Origin: Verrucomicrobiota bacterium
Lineage (GTDB): Bacteria > Verrucomicrobiota > Verrucomicrobiia > Limisphaerales > UBA1096
Assembly: GCA_036166355.1 (NCBI GenBank)
Contig: JAYZHR010000052.1
Location: forward strand, 1-54,414
Length of the DNA stretch: 54,414 bases
Direction: 5' to 3'
Part shown: piece after piece, positions 991 through 46,147 of the stretch
How the letters are laid out: every line of letters begins with the position of its first letter
Numbering within the stretch: the first letter of the stretch is position 1
Program-made: the position numbers and the translations under genes
Notes under the pieces: model-generated
What the model saw: the letters and a program-made list of their open reading frames with translations, nothing else
The model's database searches: none
Told to the model about the DNA's origin: nothing

Positions 991-1812
991 ATGAATAATC
1001 GAAACCGATCAAACACTGCATTTACATTACTGGAAACATTACTAGCTGTAGTGATTGCAACCGGTTTATTGTCCACTGCAATGTACTTCTACCAGCAATC
1101 CAGCACATTCCGTTCTGATTTGATACTGGAAAACGAAAAAATTTCCAGCGCCAGATTGATTATTAATCGAATCAGCTCAGAATTACGAAGCTCCTTAGCA
1201 CATCCGAATCTAAATATAGGCCTTAAAGGCGAATCAAATTGGGTCGAATTTCTTAAAGCTGAAATACCCTCAAAAAGCAGTTGGCAAAACTCTGCTGTAA
1301 CTATTACCTCCGCATATCCTGAAACTGGATATCGATTAATTCGGTATGAATTGGCAATGAAGGATTTGATTAACGAAACCCTTAACAATAACGCAAATCG
1401 AAAGATGGTCGAAAGCCTTAATCTAGATGGAAATACAACCGACAATACAATTACAATAAAGCAAGGTGATGCAATTGACCGAACTGAACGACGACTTCTC
1501 ACTGCTAAATCATCCACCAACAATATATCCCCAGTTAAGATCGAGACAGTTCGAATAACCGACCAATTAAAATACATGCAATTTCGCTATCTAAACAATG
1601 GATCATGGGTAAATAACTGGTCAGGCCCAGACTTGCCAAGGGGAATTGAAATTAGCCTTGGGATAGAACCTTTATCAGCAACAAATTTGCTTGAAGAATA
1701 TACAAACCATGTATTTCGAAGGATTCTCAGTATCCCTGTTGAATATAGCCAGAACTTGGCCATATCAACAAACACAGAGCCTGATTTGGAGGATCAATCC
1801 ATAAGTCAATGA
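991..1812 (+). CDS. gspJ: Type II secretion minor pseudopilin GspJ-like
   Basis: Prepilin motif TA|FTLLETLLAVVI and the C-terminal MQFRYLNNGSWVNNW...LPRGIEISL signature typical of GspJ. Confidence 0.8.
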   Translation: MNNRNRSNTAFTLLETLLAVVIATGLLSTAMYFYQQSSTFRSDLILENEKISSARLIINRISSELRSSLAHPNLNIGLKGESNWVEFLKAEIPSKSSWQNSAVTITSAYPETGYRLIRYELAMKDLINETLNNNANRKMVESLNLDGNTTDNTITIKQGDAIDRTERRLLTAKSSTNNISPVKIETVRITDQLKYMQFRYLNNGSWVNNWSGPDLPRGIEISLGIEPLSATNLLEEYTNHVFRRILSIPVEYSQNLAISTNTEPDLEDQSISQ

Positions 1813-3197
1813 TTAAAATTATTTATAGGCCTTTGAATAATTCAGGAATCGCATTAATAGGTGTTCTAATTTTAATTGGACTACTTTCCATGATATCATT
1901 AAGTCTAATGTATCGCATTCAGGCATCTGTCACCTCTTCAACTACAACCCTACCAAACGAACAAGCATGGGCCACAGCATTAAGCGGGTTGGATAAATCA
2001 ATAGCCGTGATTACAGACCCCTCAAGGTCATCACAGAGCTGGATAAACAACCCCACCGATTTTGAACAACAATTAGTTTATGATGACGGAATCAACAAGT
2101 GGTATTTTTCCGTTTTCAGACAAGGAAATCTAGAATCCGGTGAGATTGCATTTGGGCTAACAGACGAAGCATCAAAACTACCATTAAATCTAACCAATAT
2201 AATCCAACTAATGTCCGTGCCAGGCATTACACTTCCGGCCGCTGAATCCATCGCTGATTTCTCTGATAGCGATTCAATTCCTAGAGATAACGGAGCAGAA
2301 CAAGATGTATACGACTTACTACCCGCCCCTTACAATATTCCTAATAAGCCTGTAAGTTTCATAGATGAATTACTATTGGTAAATGGCATCAATGCAGGAC
2401 ACCTATACGGGGAAGATGCAAATCGAAATTACAAACTTGATATAAACGAGAACGATGAAGATCTTGTATTCCCTCCAGACAATCAAGATGGCGCCCTGTC
2501 TGGAGGCCTTAACCGTTATTTCACCCTAAACTCACGTGACTGGAATGTGAACCGCTTAAACCAGCGACGTCTCAATATAAACGATACCAATATCGACTTA
2601 AGCTCACTAGGCATTCAACCTCAAATCGTTCAGTTTCTAGAAGCAAAACGAAAATCAAATGAGCCCATAAGTTCTCTTGTCGATCTTGTAGACGCCACAA
2701 TAACTGTCACCGAATCTGGAAACATAACAAGAGATTATGAATCAGGCGTTAATAAAGAAGATCTATATGGGTTAATGGATATTTTTACCACGGACTCTAG
2801 AGAAATTAGACCCGGTCTAGTTAATATAAACACTGCGCCAGCTAACATTCTTGAACAGATCCCTGGAATAGATGAGAATTTGGCCAGTACAATAATTTCG
2901 ACCAGAAACAGCATTGCCCTAGATAAAAGCTCTTCACTAGCATGGCTCCTGGAGACTGACACCTTAGAAATTGACCAATTCAAACAACTTGAACCATATC
3001 TAACCGCGCGAAGCTTTCAGTTCCATATCCAAGTCATTGGGTATGGACTCCCATCGGGGCAATTTAAATTAATCGAATCAGTAGTTGATTTAATTGGCTC
3101 TGCCCCACGAATTATTTACCTCAGAGATTTGACCAAACTGGGCATTCCATATCATTTTAGTGCCCAGCGAGAATCAGATATTAATAACTATGAGTGA
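1809..3197 (+). CDS. gspK: Type II secretion minor pseudopilin GspK-like
   Basis: SG|IALIGVL lacks Glu5, as expected for GspK. Also DEASKLPLN, DELLLVNGI, an acidic Ca-binding-like loop (DANRNYKLDINENDED) and a helix-hairpin-helix (VNINTAPANILEQIPGIDENLA). ATGA overlap with gspJ. Confidence 0.85.
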   Translation: MIKIIYRPLNNSGIALIGVLILIGLLSMISLSLMYRIQASVTSSTTTLPNEQAWATALSGLDKSIAVITDPSRSSQSWINNPTDFEQQLVYDDGINKWYFSVFRQGNLESGEIAFGLTDEASKLPLNLTNIIQLMSVPGITLPAAESIADFSDSDSIPRDNGAEQDVYDLLPAPYNIPNKPVSFIDELLLVNGINAGHLYGEDANRNYKLDINENDEDLVFPPDNQDGALSGGLNRYFTLNSRDWNVNRLNQRRLNINDTNIDLSSLGIQPQIVQFLEAKRKSNEPISSLVDLVDATITVTESGNITRDYESGVNKEDLYGLMDIFTTDSREIRPGLVNINTAPANILEQIPGIDENLASTIISTRNSIALDKSSSLAWLLETDTLEIDQFKQLEPYLTARSFQFHIQVIGYGLPSGQFKLIESVVDLIGSAPRIIYLRDLTKLGIPYHFSAQRESDINNYE

Positions 3198-4890
3198 ATT
3201 AAAACCCATTAATTCCAATATATTTAAAAAAGGCTTAGATAGAATAACTAACCGCCTTAAAAGAAGAGGAGAAATTACCGCACTCGATATCGATCAGCGG
3301 ATGCTCCGAATTGTTCACGCAACTATGTCTCGAGGCTTATCTCGAGTGCGTCGCATAGAACTTATACCTCTCCCAGCTGAAGGATTAGATCTAAAAAGCC
3401 CTAAAGCCACCGGAGAATGGATTGGAAAACAACTAAAAAGAATACGCCTTACCCCTGGCGTAGTAGTAATGGCTGCGAGAAGAGGAGAATCAATCCTAAA
3501 GGAATATCAGTTCCCTCCAATGAAGGATATCGGTGAAATGGCCTCTATGGTAAGAGTTAGAGCAAGCCGTGACCTTCCTTTTCCGGAATCACAAGCATCA
3601 ATAGATTTCACTGTTACAAAAGCCCCAAACAAAAGAGAAATCAAAGTATCCAAAAACGATTCATCCAATTCAAATAAAACAAACGAAGCTAAAACAAACG
3701 TAGTCGTATCTGCCATAAAAAATGAAACACTGAATTTCTATAAAACAATGGCAGAATCAGCAGGATTTACTTTAGCCGGACTCGGACTTCGGCCAATGGC
3801 ATCATTTCGCGTACTTAAAACCTGTGTTCCAGATATAGTAAAGAATGCGGTTGCCCTTATTTCCATTAGACGACATGAAGTTGACGTCGATATACTCGTC
3901 GATGGAAGGTTAGTTTTTAGCCGTGAATTATCAGCTAACTTAAATTTCCCTGAAAACCATCATGAATCTGATATACAAAATAATCTAATTCAACTATCCA
4001 AGGAAATATATCGCTGTCTACACAGCTATGAAGGTTCCGAATCTTATCAAAAACTAGACCATCTACTTGTTGCAGGTGGTACAGGGATAGAAGAAAAACT
4101 CTGCCAATGCCTCGATTCGCAATCTAACCTCAAGTGGCAAAGCATGCCACCTCCCTCGGGACTTCGTTTGCCAAAGAATATAAAAGAAAATACTGCGCGC
4201 GCCTTAACATCACTCGGGCTAGCACTAGGATTCCTAGATGAAGGCGGCCTTGCTGTTAACTTCCTTTCACCTAAAAAGCCTGTTGTTAAAAGGAACGAAG
4301 GTCGAACAAAATGGCTTCTTGGAATGTGCCTACTAATCGCAGGTACACTTATGATGTTTTCAGTTCAAAAACGTTTTAAGTCTAATGCCCAATCAGCACT
4401 AGATGAACTTGCCCCAATCTATTCAAAACTAAAAAAAGATGAACGAACAAATAAGATCATTATTCGCACCGGCGACGCTGTAACAGCATGGAGTAAAGAG
4501 TCTAAAGATTGGCTTGGACATTTTGCATTTCTCAGCACAGTCCTACCATCATGCGAAAAAGTATATTTGAAAAACTTGGGGACTCGTCGTGTTGGCCAAA
4601 ACGGTGTCATAACTTTTCAATTACAAGCAAAAGACAGTTCAACACTTCACAGCGTAGAAAGCCGACTAAGAGAGTTAGGCTACGTATTTAAATCCATACC
4701 ACAAACACCAGGAAACGATCGTCACGGTTATACTTTTAGAGCCTCTTTTGAACTAATGATACCTGATAACTTCAAGCATGACTTAAAGAGTTACCTCAAC
4801 ACAAACACACCCCCAGCTCGCATAAATGACGATATTCATGCAAATGGACTCTCAAGTATTGAGCAAAATAGAGAGGATTCAAATGGCTAA
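3190..4890 (+). CDS. GspL-like inner-membrane platform protein (PilM-like actin fold + TM + PilN-like periplasmic domain)
   Basis: ITALDID, RELS, LLVAGGT and LGLALG...VNFL match PilM/FtsA-like motifs, followed by one TM helix (WLLGMCLLIAGTLMMF) and a PilN-like region. Start reassigned to ATG 3190, overlapping the gspK stop. Confidence 0.7.
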   Translation: MSELKPINSNIFKKGLDRITNRLKRRGEITALDIDQRMLRIVHATMSRGLSRVRRIELIPLPAEGLDLKSPKATGEWIGKQLKRIRLTPGVVVMAARRGESILKEYQFPPMKDIGEMASMVRVRASRDLPFPESQASIDFTVTKAPNKREIKVSKNDSSNSNKTNEAKTNVVVSAIKNETLNFYKTMAESAGFTLAGLGLRPMASFRVLKTCVPDIVKNAVALISIRRHEVDVDILVDGRLVFSRELSANLNFPENHHESDIQNNLIQLSKEIYRCLHSYEGSESYQKLDHLLVAGGTGIEEKLCQCLDSQSNLKWQSMPPPSGLRLPKNIKENTARALTSLGLALGFLDEGGLAVNFLSPKKPVVKRNEGRTKWLLGMCLLIAGTLMMFSVQKRFKSNAQSALDELAPIYSKLKKDERTNKIIIRTGDAVTAWSKESKDWLGHFAFLSTVLPSCEKVYLKNLGTRRVGQNGVITFQLQAKDSSTLHSVESRLRELGYVFKSIPQTPGNDRHGYTFRASFELMIPDNFKHDLKSYLNTNTPPARINDDIHANGLSSIEQNREDSNG

Positions 4891-23121: not shown

Positions 23122-24828
23122 ATGATTTCCTCAATTGAATCAACTGCTATTTCAAAAATACTTGATTCAGTTTCAGAATGGCTAGCTTCAGCATCTAATT
23201 GGCTTTGGGGGTTTCCACTGCTATACCTTCTGATTGGAGGCGGAATTTTCTTCACGATATATTCTCGATTTATCCCCTTTCTATACTTGCGACACAGTAT
23301 TCAGATTTTGCGTGGCAAGTTTAACAACCCTGATGACCCAGGGGAAATTAATCACTTCCAAGCATTATGCAGCGCACTCTCTGGAACAGTTGGAATGGGA
23401 AATATTACAGGAGTTGCTGTTGCAGTTGTCCAAGGAGGCCCTGGGGCGCTATTTTGGATGTGGATCTGCGCACTCCTAGGCATGGCAACTAAATTTTTCA
23501 CTTGCAGCTTAGCAGTAATGTACCGTGGAAAGGATCAAGCCGGACAAGTACAAGGTGGCCCAATGTACTTCATCACCGAAGGACTCGGCGTCAAATGGAA
23601 GCCATTAGCAATGGCATTTTGCTTTTTTGGCTTATTCGGTTGCCTACCAATGTTTCAATCTAATCAACTCACTGCTATTGTTAGCGAAATGTTCTTTAAG
23701 CCAAACTCCTGGTTTATTGACTCGAGTAAAAATGTGACACTAACGGGGCAAGGGCTCTTCGGCTTACTTTTGGCAATTTTTGTTGGAGTTGTGATACTTG
23801 GCGGAATTAAACGCATAGGTAAAGTCGCAGCATCACTCATACCGTTTATGGTTATACTTTACGGAAGTTGCGCACTTCTAATAATTGCGATAAACGCAAG
23901 TCAAATACCCGAGGCTTTCCATCTTATATTAACAGATGCTTTCACCGGACAGGCAGTAACCGGAGGCATAATAGGCGCTGTTATCTCAACTGGCGTTCGC
24001 CGTGCAGCATTCTCAAACGAGGCGGGAATGGGAACCGAAGCCATGGCTCATGGAGCAGCAAAAACAAAGGAACCAATACGAGAAGGGCTTGTAGCCATGC
24101 TCGGCCCAATGATTGACACACTGATTGTTTGTACCATTACAGGGCTAGTGATCATCAATACAGGAGTCTGGGAGAAAGGGGTAACAATTGATCGGATATC
24201 TAAGCTAAAGGGTTCAATCGAACAGTACGCAAATGACAAAAACATTTCTCCAGTAATTACAACTGATCTCATTGAATCAATAATTACAAACAAGGAGTTT
24301 AATAAACAAAAATTTTATATTCGCCCAATGAACAAGATGGACGCTTGGGGGAAACGAATTGAACTTAAAAATGGAATTAATAGCAGCAATGATAGGTTCA
24401 TTCTTATTTCGAGCGGACCAGATAAAGTTCTAAACACATCGGATGATCTTACTAGTGAAGTCAGCCCCAATTCCTACTCAGGTGTTATGCTTACCGAAAA
24501 AGCTTATAGAGCAATTTCCCCAAGTCTTGGGCCATACTTATTACTGATATGTGTACTCTGCTTCAGTTTCTCATCAATGATTGGGTTTTCCTATTATGTT
24601 ACGAAATGCGGCATGTTTCTCTTCGGCATTAAAGCTAGAATCCCTCTAATTCTCTTCTATTTAGCAGGTATCGTTATCTCGGCAATTGTCGACTTAGAGC
24701 ACTTGATCTACTTTCTGGATATCATGTTTGGGCTTATGGCAGTACCAACCATACTTTCCACTATCATCCTTTCACCTCGAGTAATGGAAAGGGCTCGAGA
24801 ATATTTCCACACACTCAAAGGAGTGTAA
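23122..24828 (+). CDS. Alanine/glycine:cation symporter (AGCS/AlsT family) with an inserted GspG-like domain
   Basis: FQALCSALSGTVGMGNITGVA, GGPGALFWMW, GGPMY, GGIKRI, FSNEAGMG and DTLIVCTITG, plus an insert of about 90 aa at 24178-24450. Confidence 0.93.
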   Translation: MISSIESTAISKILDSVSEWLASASNWLWGFPLLYLLIGGGIFFTIYSRFIPFLYLRHSIQILRGKFNNPDDPGEINHFQALCSALSGTVGMGNITGVAVAVVQGGPGALFWMWICALLGMATKFFTCSLAVMYRGKDQAGQVQGGPMYFITEGLGVKWKPLAMAFCFFGLFGCLPMFQSNQLTAIVSEMFFKPNSWFIDSSKNVTLTGQGLFGLLLAIFVGVVILGGIKRIGKVAASLIPFMVILYGSCALLIIAINASQIPEAFHLILTDAFTGQAVTGGIIGAVISTGVRRAAFSNEAGMGTEAMAHGAAKTKEPIREGLVAMLGPMIDTLIVCTITGLVIINTGVWEKGVTIDRISKLKGSIEQYANDKNISPVITTDLIESIITNKEFNKQKFYIRPMNKMDAWGKRIELKNGINSSNDRFILISSGPDKVLNTSDDLTSEVSPNSYSGVMLTEKAYRAISPSLGPYLLLICVLCFSFSSMIGFSYYVTKCGMFLFGIKARIPLILFYLAGIVISAIVDLEHLIYFLDIMFGLMAVPTILSTIILSPRVMERAREYFHTLKGV

Positions 24829-24863: not shown

Positions 24864-24874
24864 GCTTGCGACTT

Positions 24875-25429
24875 ATGGATGCTAATACTGTTTCAACTGG
24901 AATACCTTGGTACGCCTGGGCACTTATGACTGTGATATGCTGGGGCACATATGGCGTATGCATGCACACTGGCTCAATCAAAATGGCTGACCAAGAACAT
25001 GGGCGGATAATGGCATTTCTCTGGGTTGGGATAGCTTATTTTCTTACCGCAGTCATTGCACCAATTATCATCCTTAAAGTTAAAGGTGGTCCAATCGATT
25101 TTTGGGCATACCCCACGAAGGGATGGCAATGGTCCCTTATCGCCGGAACACTTGGTGCAATAGGTGCATTAGGAGTATTACTGGCTTTTGGAGCCGCACC
25201 AAACCCGACGGCTCTCTACGTACCTGTGGTTATGTCCATAATATTTGCAGGCGCTCCGATTGTGAACGCCATTGTAAACACAACCAAAACAAATGCATGG
25301 AATAACGTATCAGGTTTATTTATTTTAGGAATCTTACTGGCTGCATGTGGAGGTTACCTTGTCACCAAATACGCTCCTAAACCATCCAGCCCACCAACAG
25401 CCACCTCGGCCGTAACCGAAAATAAATAA
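24875..25429 (+). CDS. Small 5-TM membrane protein (DMT/EamA-like, uncharacterised)
   Basis: CWGTYG, AGTLGAIGALG, VMSIIFAGAPIVNA and five hydrophobic helices. Start set to ATG 24875. Confidence 0.7.
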   Translation: MDANTVSTGIPWYAWALMTVICWGTYGVCMHTGSIKMADQEHGRIMAFLWVGIAYFLTAVIAPIIILKVKGGPIDFWAYPTKGWQWSLIAGTLGAIGALGVLLAFGAAPNPTALYVPVVMSIIFAGAPIVNAIVNTTKTNAWNNVSGLFILGILLAACGGYLVTKYAPKPSSPPTATSAVTENK

Positions 25430-32387: not shown

Positions 32388-33269
32388 TTAGCGCCTGGGA
32401 CTAGTAGTGCGCTCCTGCAACCAAACAACATCCTGATTATTAGGCTGAGGCTGGTTGAGTGGAATAGTTCCATTTTTCTTCAATGGAGGAACAGTCCTTG
32501 AATCCTGCCATTTTTTGATTTCTGCATGCCCATCCGCAAAGGACAAACCAGCAGCATTGTTATGATAGCTAGCAGGATAATCGACCATGATTGTTCGCTT
32601 TGGGTCAGGATAACCCGGCATCCATATAACAAAAAAACCGTCATTAATACTATCCATTCGCTCATCAATCATCACCCAGACCTGCGAAGCCCCATGAGCA
32701 GACATATCACTACGCTTTAAGAACATAGTGCCATCTCTTGGCCCACCAAACCATGTATGATGTCCATTGCTCCGGCCGTTTTGCCCATCTCCACCTACCC
32801 AAGCACTCATTGACATGCTTCTTACTCTAGGTTTGATCCCATACTTCTTCCCCGCATTAACGGTACTAGTATCAGCCGGACAACGAAACACCGCAGAATT
32901 ACTTCCAACATGCTTCCAAAGCGGACTGCGGCGCAGTGCCTGAGCGTGCATCGGGTCCCAATTTCTCGGGTGAGCATCGTAACCAAGTGAAATATTACCC
33001 ATCCAACCCCATTCATAAGTTGGCCTATTACCACTACCAAGGTCACCATAAGCCCAAGTTACACGATCATCACTATCATCCGCATAAAATGACCAAGCCA
33101 TCATTAGCTGTTTATTGTTGTTCACACAGGAAATTCCATGCGCCTTGGTTTTAGCCTTCGCTAGTGCAGGCAAAAGCATGCCTGCAAGAATTGCTATAAT
33201 TGCAATCACCACTAGTAATTCGATAAGAGTGAATGCACTATTATTGCTGTTAATACGTTTTACTTTCAT
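32388..33269 (-). CDS. Prepilin-type N-terminal cleavage/methylation protein with H-X9-DG motif (DUF1559-like)
   Basis: SA|[39 protein letters not shown] and [13 protein letters not shown]. Confidence 0.93.
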
Positions 33270-33283
33270 TCTATATGTTCAAA

Positions 33284-34063
33284 TTAAGTTCCGTTTTTAG
33301 AATTTGGCACACACCAGAGCCGACCCGGCCTACGTTTCAACTCCTGCTTATACCATTCAAATTTCATAAACTCTACACTCCCCCCAAACAACCCAGTAAC
33401 AGCGCCTTCACTGTGCCTCTTACTAATACCCTCCGAAAATATTTCCTGACCACCCTCTATGTAAATCTGCCCAGGAGTACTAGAGGCATCATTAAAATTA
33501 AAAATACGACGTTCATCTGGAGCCCAGAATAAAACATCCTCTGAATCAAATTGATTGCGCTTGTGGGTTTTATTATTAAACCAACCATTGGAAAATTTTC
33601 CAACGACTCCATTCATAACATAACTTGTAGTGTCTTGCAGGCCTTGCTTACGTCGAGATTCAATATCCTTAGCCTTTTCCGCAAGACAATAGAAAGATCC
33701 TTTATTGCTGACATATGTCCAGAGTTGTCCTTGTTCAGCACGAAAGTAAGACTCACCTTTTGGCACATTACGCGTAGTATATTTATAAGCCCAACCTTCA
33801 GTCTGAACACCCCAATTGGGATAAGGCAAATAATCCTCTTGATCATCAGTATACATATGAACACCCAACACAAGCTGCTTTTGGTTATTAATACAGTTTG
33901 TTCTCTGAGCTTGGCTTTTTGCCTTAGCTAAAGCTGGAAGCAACATTCCAGCTAATATTGCAATTATTGCAATAACCACCAATAACTCAATAAGAGTAAA
34001 CCCAAAATCATAACGAACCTCTTTACGAGATCTCCATCTGTCATTTAAGTCCATCATCTTCAT
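33284..34063 (-). CDS. Prepilin-type N-terminal cleavage/methylation protein (DUF1559-like, variant H-X9-GG)
   Basis: FG|[36 protein letters not shown] and [16 protein letters not shown]. Confidence 0.92.
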
Positions 34064-45343: not shown

Positions 45344-46147
45344 GTGCAGCGTTTCCGATTGAAAAAATTTGGTTTCACACTAATCGAACTTCTAGTGGTA
45401 ATCGCGATTATCGCCATATTAGCAGGCATGCTTCTCCCTGCTTTGGCAAAAGCAAAAAGCAAAGCAACGGGAGCTAAATGCTCAAGCAACCTCAGGCAGA
45501 TGGGCATAGGCCTGATTGCATTCTCTGACGACTACGACCATTATCCAGTTGGCATCAATGGCAATCGCGGCTCCTCATGGATATGGCCTTCACAAATTCG
45601 ACAATACCTTGGAGGAAAAGAAGCCCGCAGCACAGAGCTTTTTAAGTGCCCATCAGCTCCTGACAAGGCCAACTGGAAAGTTAAGTTTTCAGGAAGTCAG
45701 CCAGCGGAGGACGGCTATCTAAAAGGAGAGATTCGACTTCGTCCTGGCGGTCAAAGTTTTATGAGTTACGGATACAATGTTTGGGGGGCATGGGCAGGCA
45801 TGATCCCAAATCAAGGCATGGGAGTATATAAGGCACATCCAAACTGGGGCGAAACTAAACCTAGCCAAGTTCTTGTACCTAGCGAAATGATAGCAATTGG
45901 CGATAGCAACTGGGACTTAAACCAAGAAGGAGATCGGGACTGGAGTGGCTTTATTGGAATGTACGCAAAACGCCAGTGGCCCCTAGCCCTTCATAACAAA
46001 CGAGCAGAGATCCTATTTGTCGACGGACATGTGACTGCCGAAAAGAGAACAGACCTCGTAGCACAACTAAATAAGGATCCGGGCCGTAAAGATTTTGCAG
46101 CCAAACGCTGGAATCTCGATAACACTCCACATCACGATCGTCGCTAG
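45344..46147 (+). CDS. Prepilin-type N-terminal cleavage/methylation protein with H-X9-DG motif (DUF1559-like)
   Basis: FG|[45 protein letters not shown] and HNKRAEILFVDGH. Confidence 0.93.
   Translation: MQRFRLKKFGFTLIELLVVIAIIAILAGMLLPALAKAKSKATGAKCSSNLRQMGIGLIAFSDDYDHYPVGINGNRGSSWIWPSQIRQYLGGKEARSTELFKCPSAPDKANWKVKFSGSQPAEDGYLKGEIRLRPGGQSFMSYGYNVWGAWAGMIPNQGMGVYKAHPNWGETKPSQVLVPSEMIAIGDSNWDLNQEGDRDWSGFIGMYAKRQWPLALHNKRAEILFVDGHVTAEKRTDLVAQLNKDPGRKDFAAKRWNLDNTPHHDRR

Follow-up and report, generated by a model that had tools for sequence, protein, structure and literature searches.

Why should the gene of an amino acid symporter contain, in the midst of its coding sequence, about 100 codons that are missing from the same gene in sister species, and what do these codons encode? 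The question is raised by an open reading frame (ORF) on the + strand of a stretch of 54,414 nucleotides from a Verrucomicrobiota bacterium (contig JAYZHR010000052.1 of the assembly GCA_036166355.1), which is referred to below as the window. The ORF encodes a protein of the AGCS family of Na+/alanine (glycine) symporters, and our comparisons make it very probable that the inserted segment is the entire globular head of a major pseudopilin of the GspG type (Pfam family T2SSG), which would face the periplasm.

The host transporter and the site of the insertion

The symporter gene and its parts are located in the window as follows (TM, transmembrane helix):

23122..24828, + strand: gene of an AGCS-family Na+/alanine(glycine) symporter, 568 aa, with an internal insert (according to the ORF, Pfam, TIGR00835 and PDB entry 6cse)
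23122..24168, + strand: first part of the transporter, residues 1-349, TM1-TM8, with the Na+-site residues N94/S298/D332 (equivalent to residues 9-325 of 6cse; helix numbering after bioRxiv 10.1101/293811)
24169..24474, + strand: inserted domain, very probably T2SSG (GspG-type pseudopilin head), with two linkers, residues 350-451 (missing from 6cse and from 15 same-genus orthologues)
24475..24828, + strand: second part of the transporter, residues 452-568, comprising the remainder of the TM8-TM9 loop, TM9-TM11 and the stop codon (equivalent to residues 334-441 of 6cse)

The frame is open throughout the gene, and the protein matches the Pfam profile Na_Ala_symp (PF01235) with 394 bits (cut-off 24, E 1.2e-117) and the profile TIGR00835 agcS with 409.9 bits (cut-off 272.65). 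The alignment with AgcS of Methanococcus maripaludis (6cse, 453 aa; E 2.1e-77) consists of two collinear blocks, in which residues 23-349 and 452-560 of the symporter correspond to residues 9-325 and 334-441 of the chain, and at the break between residues 349 and 452 approximately 102 residues stand where 6cse has 8 (between residues 325 and 334). Mapping of individual residues onto 6cse reveals that the Na+-site residues N80/S274/D308 of AgcS are retained as N94/S298/D332 and that F273 and E276 of AgcS are likewise conserved, whereas T366 and W370 in TM9 of AgcS are replaced by S485 and F489. With the family profiles, the collinearity and the Na+-site residues all in agreement with AgcS (6cse/6csf), the protein is, as far as its sequence can tell, a genuine AGCS member in which both flanks of the insert are intact, and Na+-coupled transport of alanine/glycine is its predicted activity. 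The initial annotation of the window had described an AGCS symporter with about 90 extra loop residues between two intact halves; the ORF, both profiles and the break in the 6cse alignment bear this out, and the coordinates given there (24178-24450) fall within the insert as placed here.

The 15 same-genus orthologues that lack the insert are 468-469 aa long, a net difference of 100 residues, and possess only the loop ..TGVWQETGDNPDGVLL.. at the site of the insertion; their loop reads ..GVWQETGDNPDGVLL.., and their flanks are 73-83% identical to those of the window's protein.

The AgcS study (bioRxiv 10.1101/293811) describes 11 TM helices with a periplasmic N-terminus, a cytoplasmic C-terminus and a core composed of TM2/4/7/9, and places D308 in TM8 and T366/W370 in TM9. 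Because of this helix count and the location of the termini, the TM8-TM9 loop of AgcS would be periplasmic, and by homology the insert-bearing loop of the window's protein should face the periplasm and not the cytoplasm. Moreover, since helix n of AgcS corresponds to helix n-1 of LeuT, the TM8-TM9 loop would be the counterpart of extracellular loop 4 (EL4) of LeuT, an equivalence that we draw ourselves from the AgcS helix numbering. EL4 of LeuT is the outer lid of LeuT-fold carriers.

Identity of the inserted domain

The insert is present in seven genomes of a single genus, and its sequences fall into group A (the window's, L006 and L007) and group B (L008-L011). All four group-B inserts match PF08334, the T2SSG profile, with 40.5-46 bits (cut-off 21, E 6e-12 to 3e-10) and cover profile positions 13-100 of 108. 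The insert of the window can be aligned with them without a single gap, at 46-48% identity. In profile-profile comparisons with hhalign, for which 31 canonical GspG heads, taken from genomes within the same order and aligned independently, served as the reference, the group-A inserts alone yielded a probability of 84.8% (E 6.6e-6), and the joint profile of both groups a probability of 96.4% (E 1e-9), each over 89 columns, while two unrelated alignments used as controls yielded 0.2% (E ~0.3). A phmmer search with a 107-residue stretch against 1.84 billion representative proteins returned 18 matches at E<=1e-3, one of which is the same type of AGCS protein; T2SSG scores above the cut-off in 15 of the 17 others (10/10 and 5/7). 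The two exceptions, P0090 and P0100, are repetitive or of low complexity, and were rejected as spurious.

The same combination of domains can be found in databases. The group-B protein P0105, representing a cluster of 323 members, has both PF01235 and PF08334 in its precomputed Pfam annotation, and both domains are also present in the fragment P0104; the architecture has therefore already been recorded for the group-B form, if unremarked. One more deposited sequence, the 101-aa 'hypothetical protein' P0095 of a metagenome-assembled genome of Verrucomicrobiales, corresponds to a fragment of an AGCS insert of group B. It begins with the ..DRISKLKDG.. helix and diverges towards its end, so that a frameshift or a truncated gene call is probable. 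When proteins of 58-188 aa were searched for close relatives of the insert that stand alone, the only matches were two fragments, both from the same AGCS genes; among longer proteins, the matches were 87 from AGCS and a single T2SSG protein of 950 aa, with no other transporter family, although this search was limited to word matches and constitutes weak evidence.

Three elements within the insert have recognizable counterparts in pseudopilins:

24166..24237, + strand: predicted long helix ..DRISKLKGSIEQYAND, residues 349-372, counterpart of pilin alpha1-C, directly after TM8 (AlphaFold2 model; columns of the GspG N-terminal helix)
24340..24351, + strand: DAWG motif, residues 407-410, equivalent to the 'DPWG' of GspG (40-row alignment)
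24409..24447, + strand: SSGPDKVLNTSDD loop, residues 430-442, corresponding to the Ca2+-binding loop of pseudopilins, with D434, T439 and D442 as presumed ligands and D441 adjacent

The 40 rows of the joint alignment, made up of the inserts and the canonical GspG heads, do not vary at Y399, D407, W409, S430, G432 and D442, and hardly at G410. D88, T93, D95 and D96 (numbered within the insert) are invariant in all seven insert-bearing genomes, and the motif elements from which a GspG head had initially been recognized (a helix with ..I..L...IEQY, DAWG, SSGPD and NT.DD) are all present and conserved. The elements follow one another as in the major pseudopilins GspG, PulG, EpsG, XcpT and OutG (PF08334; 3g20, 1t92, 3fu1, 2kep, 5o2y): a long helix comes first, then a DPWG-type motif and beta strands, and the GPD..T.DD loop stands at the C-terminal end. 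According to a study of the pseudopilin Ca2+ site (PMC13081927), the ion is bound by the side chains of D117, T/S122 and D125 together with two backbone carbonyls; the D-x4-T-x2-D spacing of D434/T439/D442, residues without variation among the seven genomes, is identical to that of D117/T122/D125 in OutG, and we regard the loop of the insert as a putative Ca2+-binding site.

An AlphaFold2 model of the insert, calculated from 40 rows that included GspG heads, exhibits a long N-terminal helix (positions 3-26) followed by strands, with an overall predicted local distance difference test (pLDDT) of 63.6, a predicted template-modeling score (pTM) of 0.60 and pLDDT values of 74-77 in the first two blocks; with only a 7-row alignment of close relatives the pLDDT was 42.1. 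In a Foldseek comparison of the former, partly circular model with the PDB, the top 13 matches were all major pseudopilins, with 3g20_A as the best (probability 0.98, TM 0.57, E 0.053), and VIA-align superimposed the same partly circular model on pseudopilins with Z 5.9-7.0 over 80-90 residues. The helix of the model begins at residue 349, and TM8 and the head helix would be nearly continuous, as in a pilin. The GspG-head identity proposed in the initial annotation thus has behind it profile and structural matches: Pfam matches of the group-B inserts, the hhalign comparisons, the phmmer link to T2SSG proteins and a model of moderate confidence.

A number of results weigh against this identification. 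The window's own insert (24160-24480) has no match to PF08334 in Pfam at E<=10, a scan of the whole genome with PF08334 at E<=1 gave no signal at this position, and a profile of 7 group-A inserts found no match among the PDB sequences at E<=10. Because these direct profile tests were negative, the T2SSG assignment of the window's insert rests on its homology to the group-B inserts and on the profile-profile comparisons. Furthermore, the confidence of the model is only moderate overall and its residues 31-57 have a pLDDT <50; as GspG rows went into the input alignment, its likeness to GspG involves some circularity, and the Foldseek E-values are weak, 0.05 or worse. The other two group-A inserts (L006 and L007) likewise have no PF08334 match, and no T2SSG was found by an NCBIfam search of the window's insert at E<=10; sub-threshold matches of the latter to DsrD and DUF835 were discarded as noise.

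Origin and distribution of the insert

In a search of 61 genomes, orthologues of the symporter were detected in 21 of the 25 other genomes of the genus, six of them with the insert and 15 without, which together with the window's genome gives seven insert-bearing genomes versus 15 with the plain form. As for the rest of the genus, G005 has a C-terminal fragment that does not allow a judgment, G024 has only a paralogue, and two genomes gave no match. A maximum-likelihood tree was calculated from 425 columns of the flanks, with the region of the insert removed. The seven insert-bearing genes group together as a clade with support of 100/99 (a single change, in each of 200 bootstrap trees), which is nested among the plain orthologues, and more distant homologues also lack the insert. 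As reconstructed from this tree, the insert was gained once, within one marine verrucomicrobial genus. Group A is nested in a paraphyletic group B, and therefore the GspG-like version would be the older one, from which the version in the window is derived.

Both forms occupy the same place in the genome. The order of genes encoding phosphoglucomutase, the AGCS symporter, a 187-aa membrane protein and an AMP-ligase is common to them, and irrespective of the form, each of the 22 orthologue loci has kept one or both flanking genes, 17 of them both. The gene for the 187-aa polytopic membrane protein (24866-25429, + strand) begins 37 nt downstream of the AGCS gene and is syntenic in 19/22 loci with either form; no Pfam family could be assigned to it, only a weak sub-threshold match to MASE3.

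[quoted passage not shown] Microhomology or repeats at the nucleotide junctions are not discernible either, the sequences being too diverged from the insert-less form. The guanine-plus-cytosine (GC) content of the AGCS gene is 0.43 in the window and 0.40-0.43 in the window's lineage (0.33-0.39 at third codon positions, GC3), compared to 0.53-0.55 in group B and 0.54-0.60 for the plain form; that of the insert is 0.36 in the window and 0.48-0.49 in group B. The lower GC content of the insert could reflect a foreign origin or merely the composition of a loop, and we draw no conclusion from it. The window's lineage as a whole looks shifted towards AT, which probably explains both the abundance of Asn, Lys and Ile in its insert and the loss of the Pfam signal.

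Among metagenomic proteins, 84 include the region of the insert, and 83 of them cover it fully. The metagenomes in which the insert form occurs are labeled as sea-water, marine or, in one study, freshwater.

A domain of the transporter and not a subunit of a pilus

The comparison with the major pseudopilins also reveals what the insert lacks. Unlike them, it is without a leader, a G/FTLIE methylation motif or a hydrophobic alpha1-N helix, and it resides between two TM helices, outside a T2SS operon. When the six frames of the window were searched for the prepilin G/FTLIE motif with a regular expression, it was encountered only in other ORFs and nowhere in the symporter gene, in keeping with the lack of a prepilin cleavage site claimed in the initial annotation. 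In the place of the pilin helix, the head is preceded by TM8 of the carrier, and it starts a few residues after TM8, virtually as the earlier claim had it (directly after a TM helix). Because it has neither the prepilin leader nor the hydrophobic pilin helix, the insert is, on the evidence of its sequence, a transporter domain and not a pilus subunit, and it cannot undergo processing or polymerization in the manner of a pseudopilin.

The closest relatives of the insert outside AGCS are proteins with tandem T2SSG heads (e.g. P0088, P0094, P0099, P0101 and P0103; E 3.6e-7 to 8e-4), which resemble the insert in having a T2SSG head without a prepilin leader and in the S.GPD...T.DD loop, and differ from it in that two or three heads follow a signal-peptide-like or single-anchor N-terminus and in that none is located within a transporter. 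Since these nearest non-AGCS relatives are not pilins, the T2SSG head would seem to be a portable periplasmic module that is used outside filaments. The members of this class that we noted are P0087, P0088, P0093, P0094, P0099, P0101 and P0103; P0097 additionally carries a DUF4190 membrane domain.

Proposed role and alternative explanations

We propose that the pseudopilin head replaces the short periplasmic loop after TM8, i.e. the counterpart of the EL4 outer lid, with TM8 standing in for the hydrophobic helix of the pilin. The head would fold in the periplasm, where Ca2+ would stabilize it in the way known from PulG and OutG, and two short linkers would hold it beside the outer gate. There it would cap the periplasmic side of the symporter and either alter access or gating or offer a surface to a partner. 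We give about even chances to this reading as a whole, in which the outer-gate loop carries a Ca2+-stabilized periplasmic cap and the insert belongs to the transporter as an accessory domain, instead of being a component of a secretion system. What speaks against it is that 15 congeners manage without the insert, having the plain 468-aa form at this locus, and that the dN/dS ratio (nonsynonymous to synonymous substitution rates) of the insert is 4-6 times that of the flanks. In addition, the placement of the head above the vestibule is a proposal, and a contig from an RNA library, which covers 23968-24121, ends short of the insert.

The first two of these points could also be taken to mean that the insert is a tolerated passenger, a fragment of a pseudopilin in a permissive loop that folds harmlessly and is subject to selection only against misfolding. 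By the Nei-Gojobori method, the insert has a dN/dS of 0.13-0.16 within group A (at dS ~0.9-1.0) and 0.34-0.62 in group B, compared to 0.03-0.07 in the transporter's N-terminal part; one near-identical group-B pair with an unreliable value of 3.3 was excluded, and dS between the two groups is saturated. Compared with the window's protein, 82 full-length metagenomic proteins have an identity of 0.74 within the insert and 0.88 elsewhere. The window's lineage has drifted, alongside its shift towards AT, past detection by Pfam. All the same, values of dN/dS below 1 indicate that the insert is under purifying selection, if weaker than that on the membrane core, and in group A this selection is clear. 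The exact length of the insert has been kept even though synonymous sites are near saturation, as there are no gaps among 35 distinct complete variants (the window's protein included). The six invariant residues (from Y399 to D442) and the pattern of Ca2+ ligands have also been kept, and the form is abundant in metagenomes (the 83 fully covering proteins and the group-B cluster of 323). With these observations in view, we consider a mere passenger unlikely.

The initial annotation had suggested capture, sensing or docking as possible functions of the head. Another explanation, which builds on its suggestion that the symporter could be linked to the DUF1559 pilin-like genes of the window, is that the head is a docking module, which binds pilin-like proteins (the T2SS endopilus or DUF1559 proteins) and couples uptake to a surface or secretion apparatus. 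The head is indeed of the major-pseudopilin type, and the genome possesses potential partners. Its canonical GspG (175 aa; L001, G000:C134, 223-750, - strand) is encoded elsewhere, on a 2.1-kb contig, and the window contains GspK-like and PilM/GspL-like genes at 1809-4890. Moreover, DUF1559 has 19 matches in the genome, and a paralogue of the symporter lies directly downstream of a DUF1559 gene in all 13 assessable loci, which hints at a wider link between AGCS and pilin-like proteins. On the other hand, the insert lacks the hydrophobic alpha1-N helix, and it is this helix that holds the subunits in the core of type IV filaments. No T2SS cluster surrounds the symporter gene, whose neighbors are those named above; the nearest pilin or T2SS genes are at least 8 kb away, with unrelated genes in between, and one congener has its canonical T2SS operon on a different contig from the AGCS gene with the insert. 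Some 18 kb separate the T2SS-like cluster of the window from the AGCS gene, which is downstream of it, again with unrelated genes between, and since the 19 DUF1559 matches are scattered over the 3.1-Mb genome, the presence of such genes in a 54-kb window means little. The suggested link to the DUF1559 genes thus finds no support in the gene context, as they are 8-21 kb away and belong to other gene groups, and altogether we regard docking as quite unlikely.

The pilin-like genes mentioned above can be described as follows. At 1809-3197 and 3160-4890 (both + strand) the window encodes T2SSK_1st/GspK-like and PilM_2/GspL-like proteins, the distal part of a T2SS-like cluster; the 2.1-kb contig with GspG also bears the start of a GspH-like gene and may join this cluster at the start of the window. 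Three prepilin-type (N_methyl) proteins are encoded at 32388-33269 (- strand), 33284-34063 (- strand) and 45344-46147 (+ strand), two of which match DUF1559/SBP_bac_10, in the neighborhood of heparinase II/III-like and purple-acid-phosphatase-like genes. The second AGCS paralogue (L075, G000:C71:6500-12500, 2917-4542, + strand) is 541 aa long and ~50% identical, with no insert at its TM8-TM9 loop, and an AGCS paralogue of 547 aa likewise has none there. The 541-aa paralogue is preceded on the same strand, at a distance of 84 nt, by a DUF1559 prepilin-like gene (269 aa; L075 2024-2833, + strand). This pair recurs in 13/13 loci of the genus with an assembled upstream region, two further loci ending at a contig edge. 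A complex prediction for the paralogue and its DUF1559 neighbor ended with a score of 0.00, i.e. without an answer, and speaks neither for nor against binding.

It is tempting to go one step further and to imagine pilin-type heads as membrane-tethered periplasmic accessory domains of the AGCS symporters of this genus, engaged in capture or in control of the outer gate, in cis as the T2SSG graft on TM8 and in trans as the DUF1559 protein encoded upstream of the paralogue. We offer this as a very doubtful conjecture; if it were true, it would amount to a filament-independent use of proteins with the type IV pilin fold and provide the first functional clue to the DUF1559 expansions of PVC (Planctomycetes, Verrucomicrobia and Chlamydiae) bacteria.

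Finally, the architecture might be an artefact of assembly or annotation, with a read-through that misjoins two genes or a chimeric contig, and in favor of this one might invoke the fragmented state of the genome (288 contigs, 82% complete). Such an artefact is refuted for practical purposes by the open frame, by the same architecture in seven genomes and 83 metagenomic proteins, and by contigs of three different studies that bridge both junctions without insertions or deletions. In particular, run X2 contributes a contig of 2,013 nt that runs from 23950 to 24650 without a gap and differs there by 7 substitutions; from run X3 there is a contig over 24133-24650, and from run X6 there are contigs over 23950-24428 and 24399-24610.

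Implications

Large extracellular domains that emerge from loops near the outer gate are known in other LeuT-fold carriers, e.g. in the KCC/NKCC cation-chloride cotransporters. Those domains, however, are eukaryotic, are not derived from pilins and arise from loops other than the one that accommodates the TM8-TM9 insert. Insertions of folded domains into the outer loops of bacterial LeuT-fold carriers have rarely been described, and in the limited collection of literature that we searched, no description of a pseudopilin head inside a transporter was found. Such chimeras are probably under-counted, because automatic annotation misses the domain in the AT-shifted lineage of the window. The insertion described here is evolutionarily young, with a clear state before and after, and it bears on the co-option of pilin folds. 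As the sister species possess the same syntenic gene minus 100 residues, they are natural controls for the study of uptake, gating and Ca2+-dependence in this symporter.

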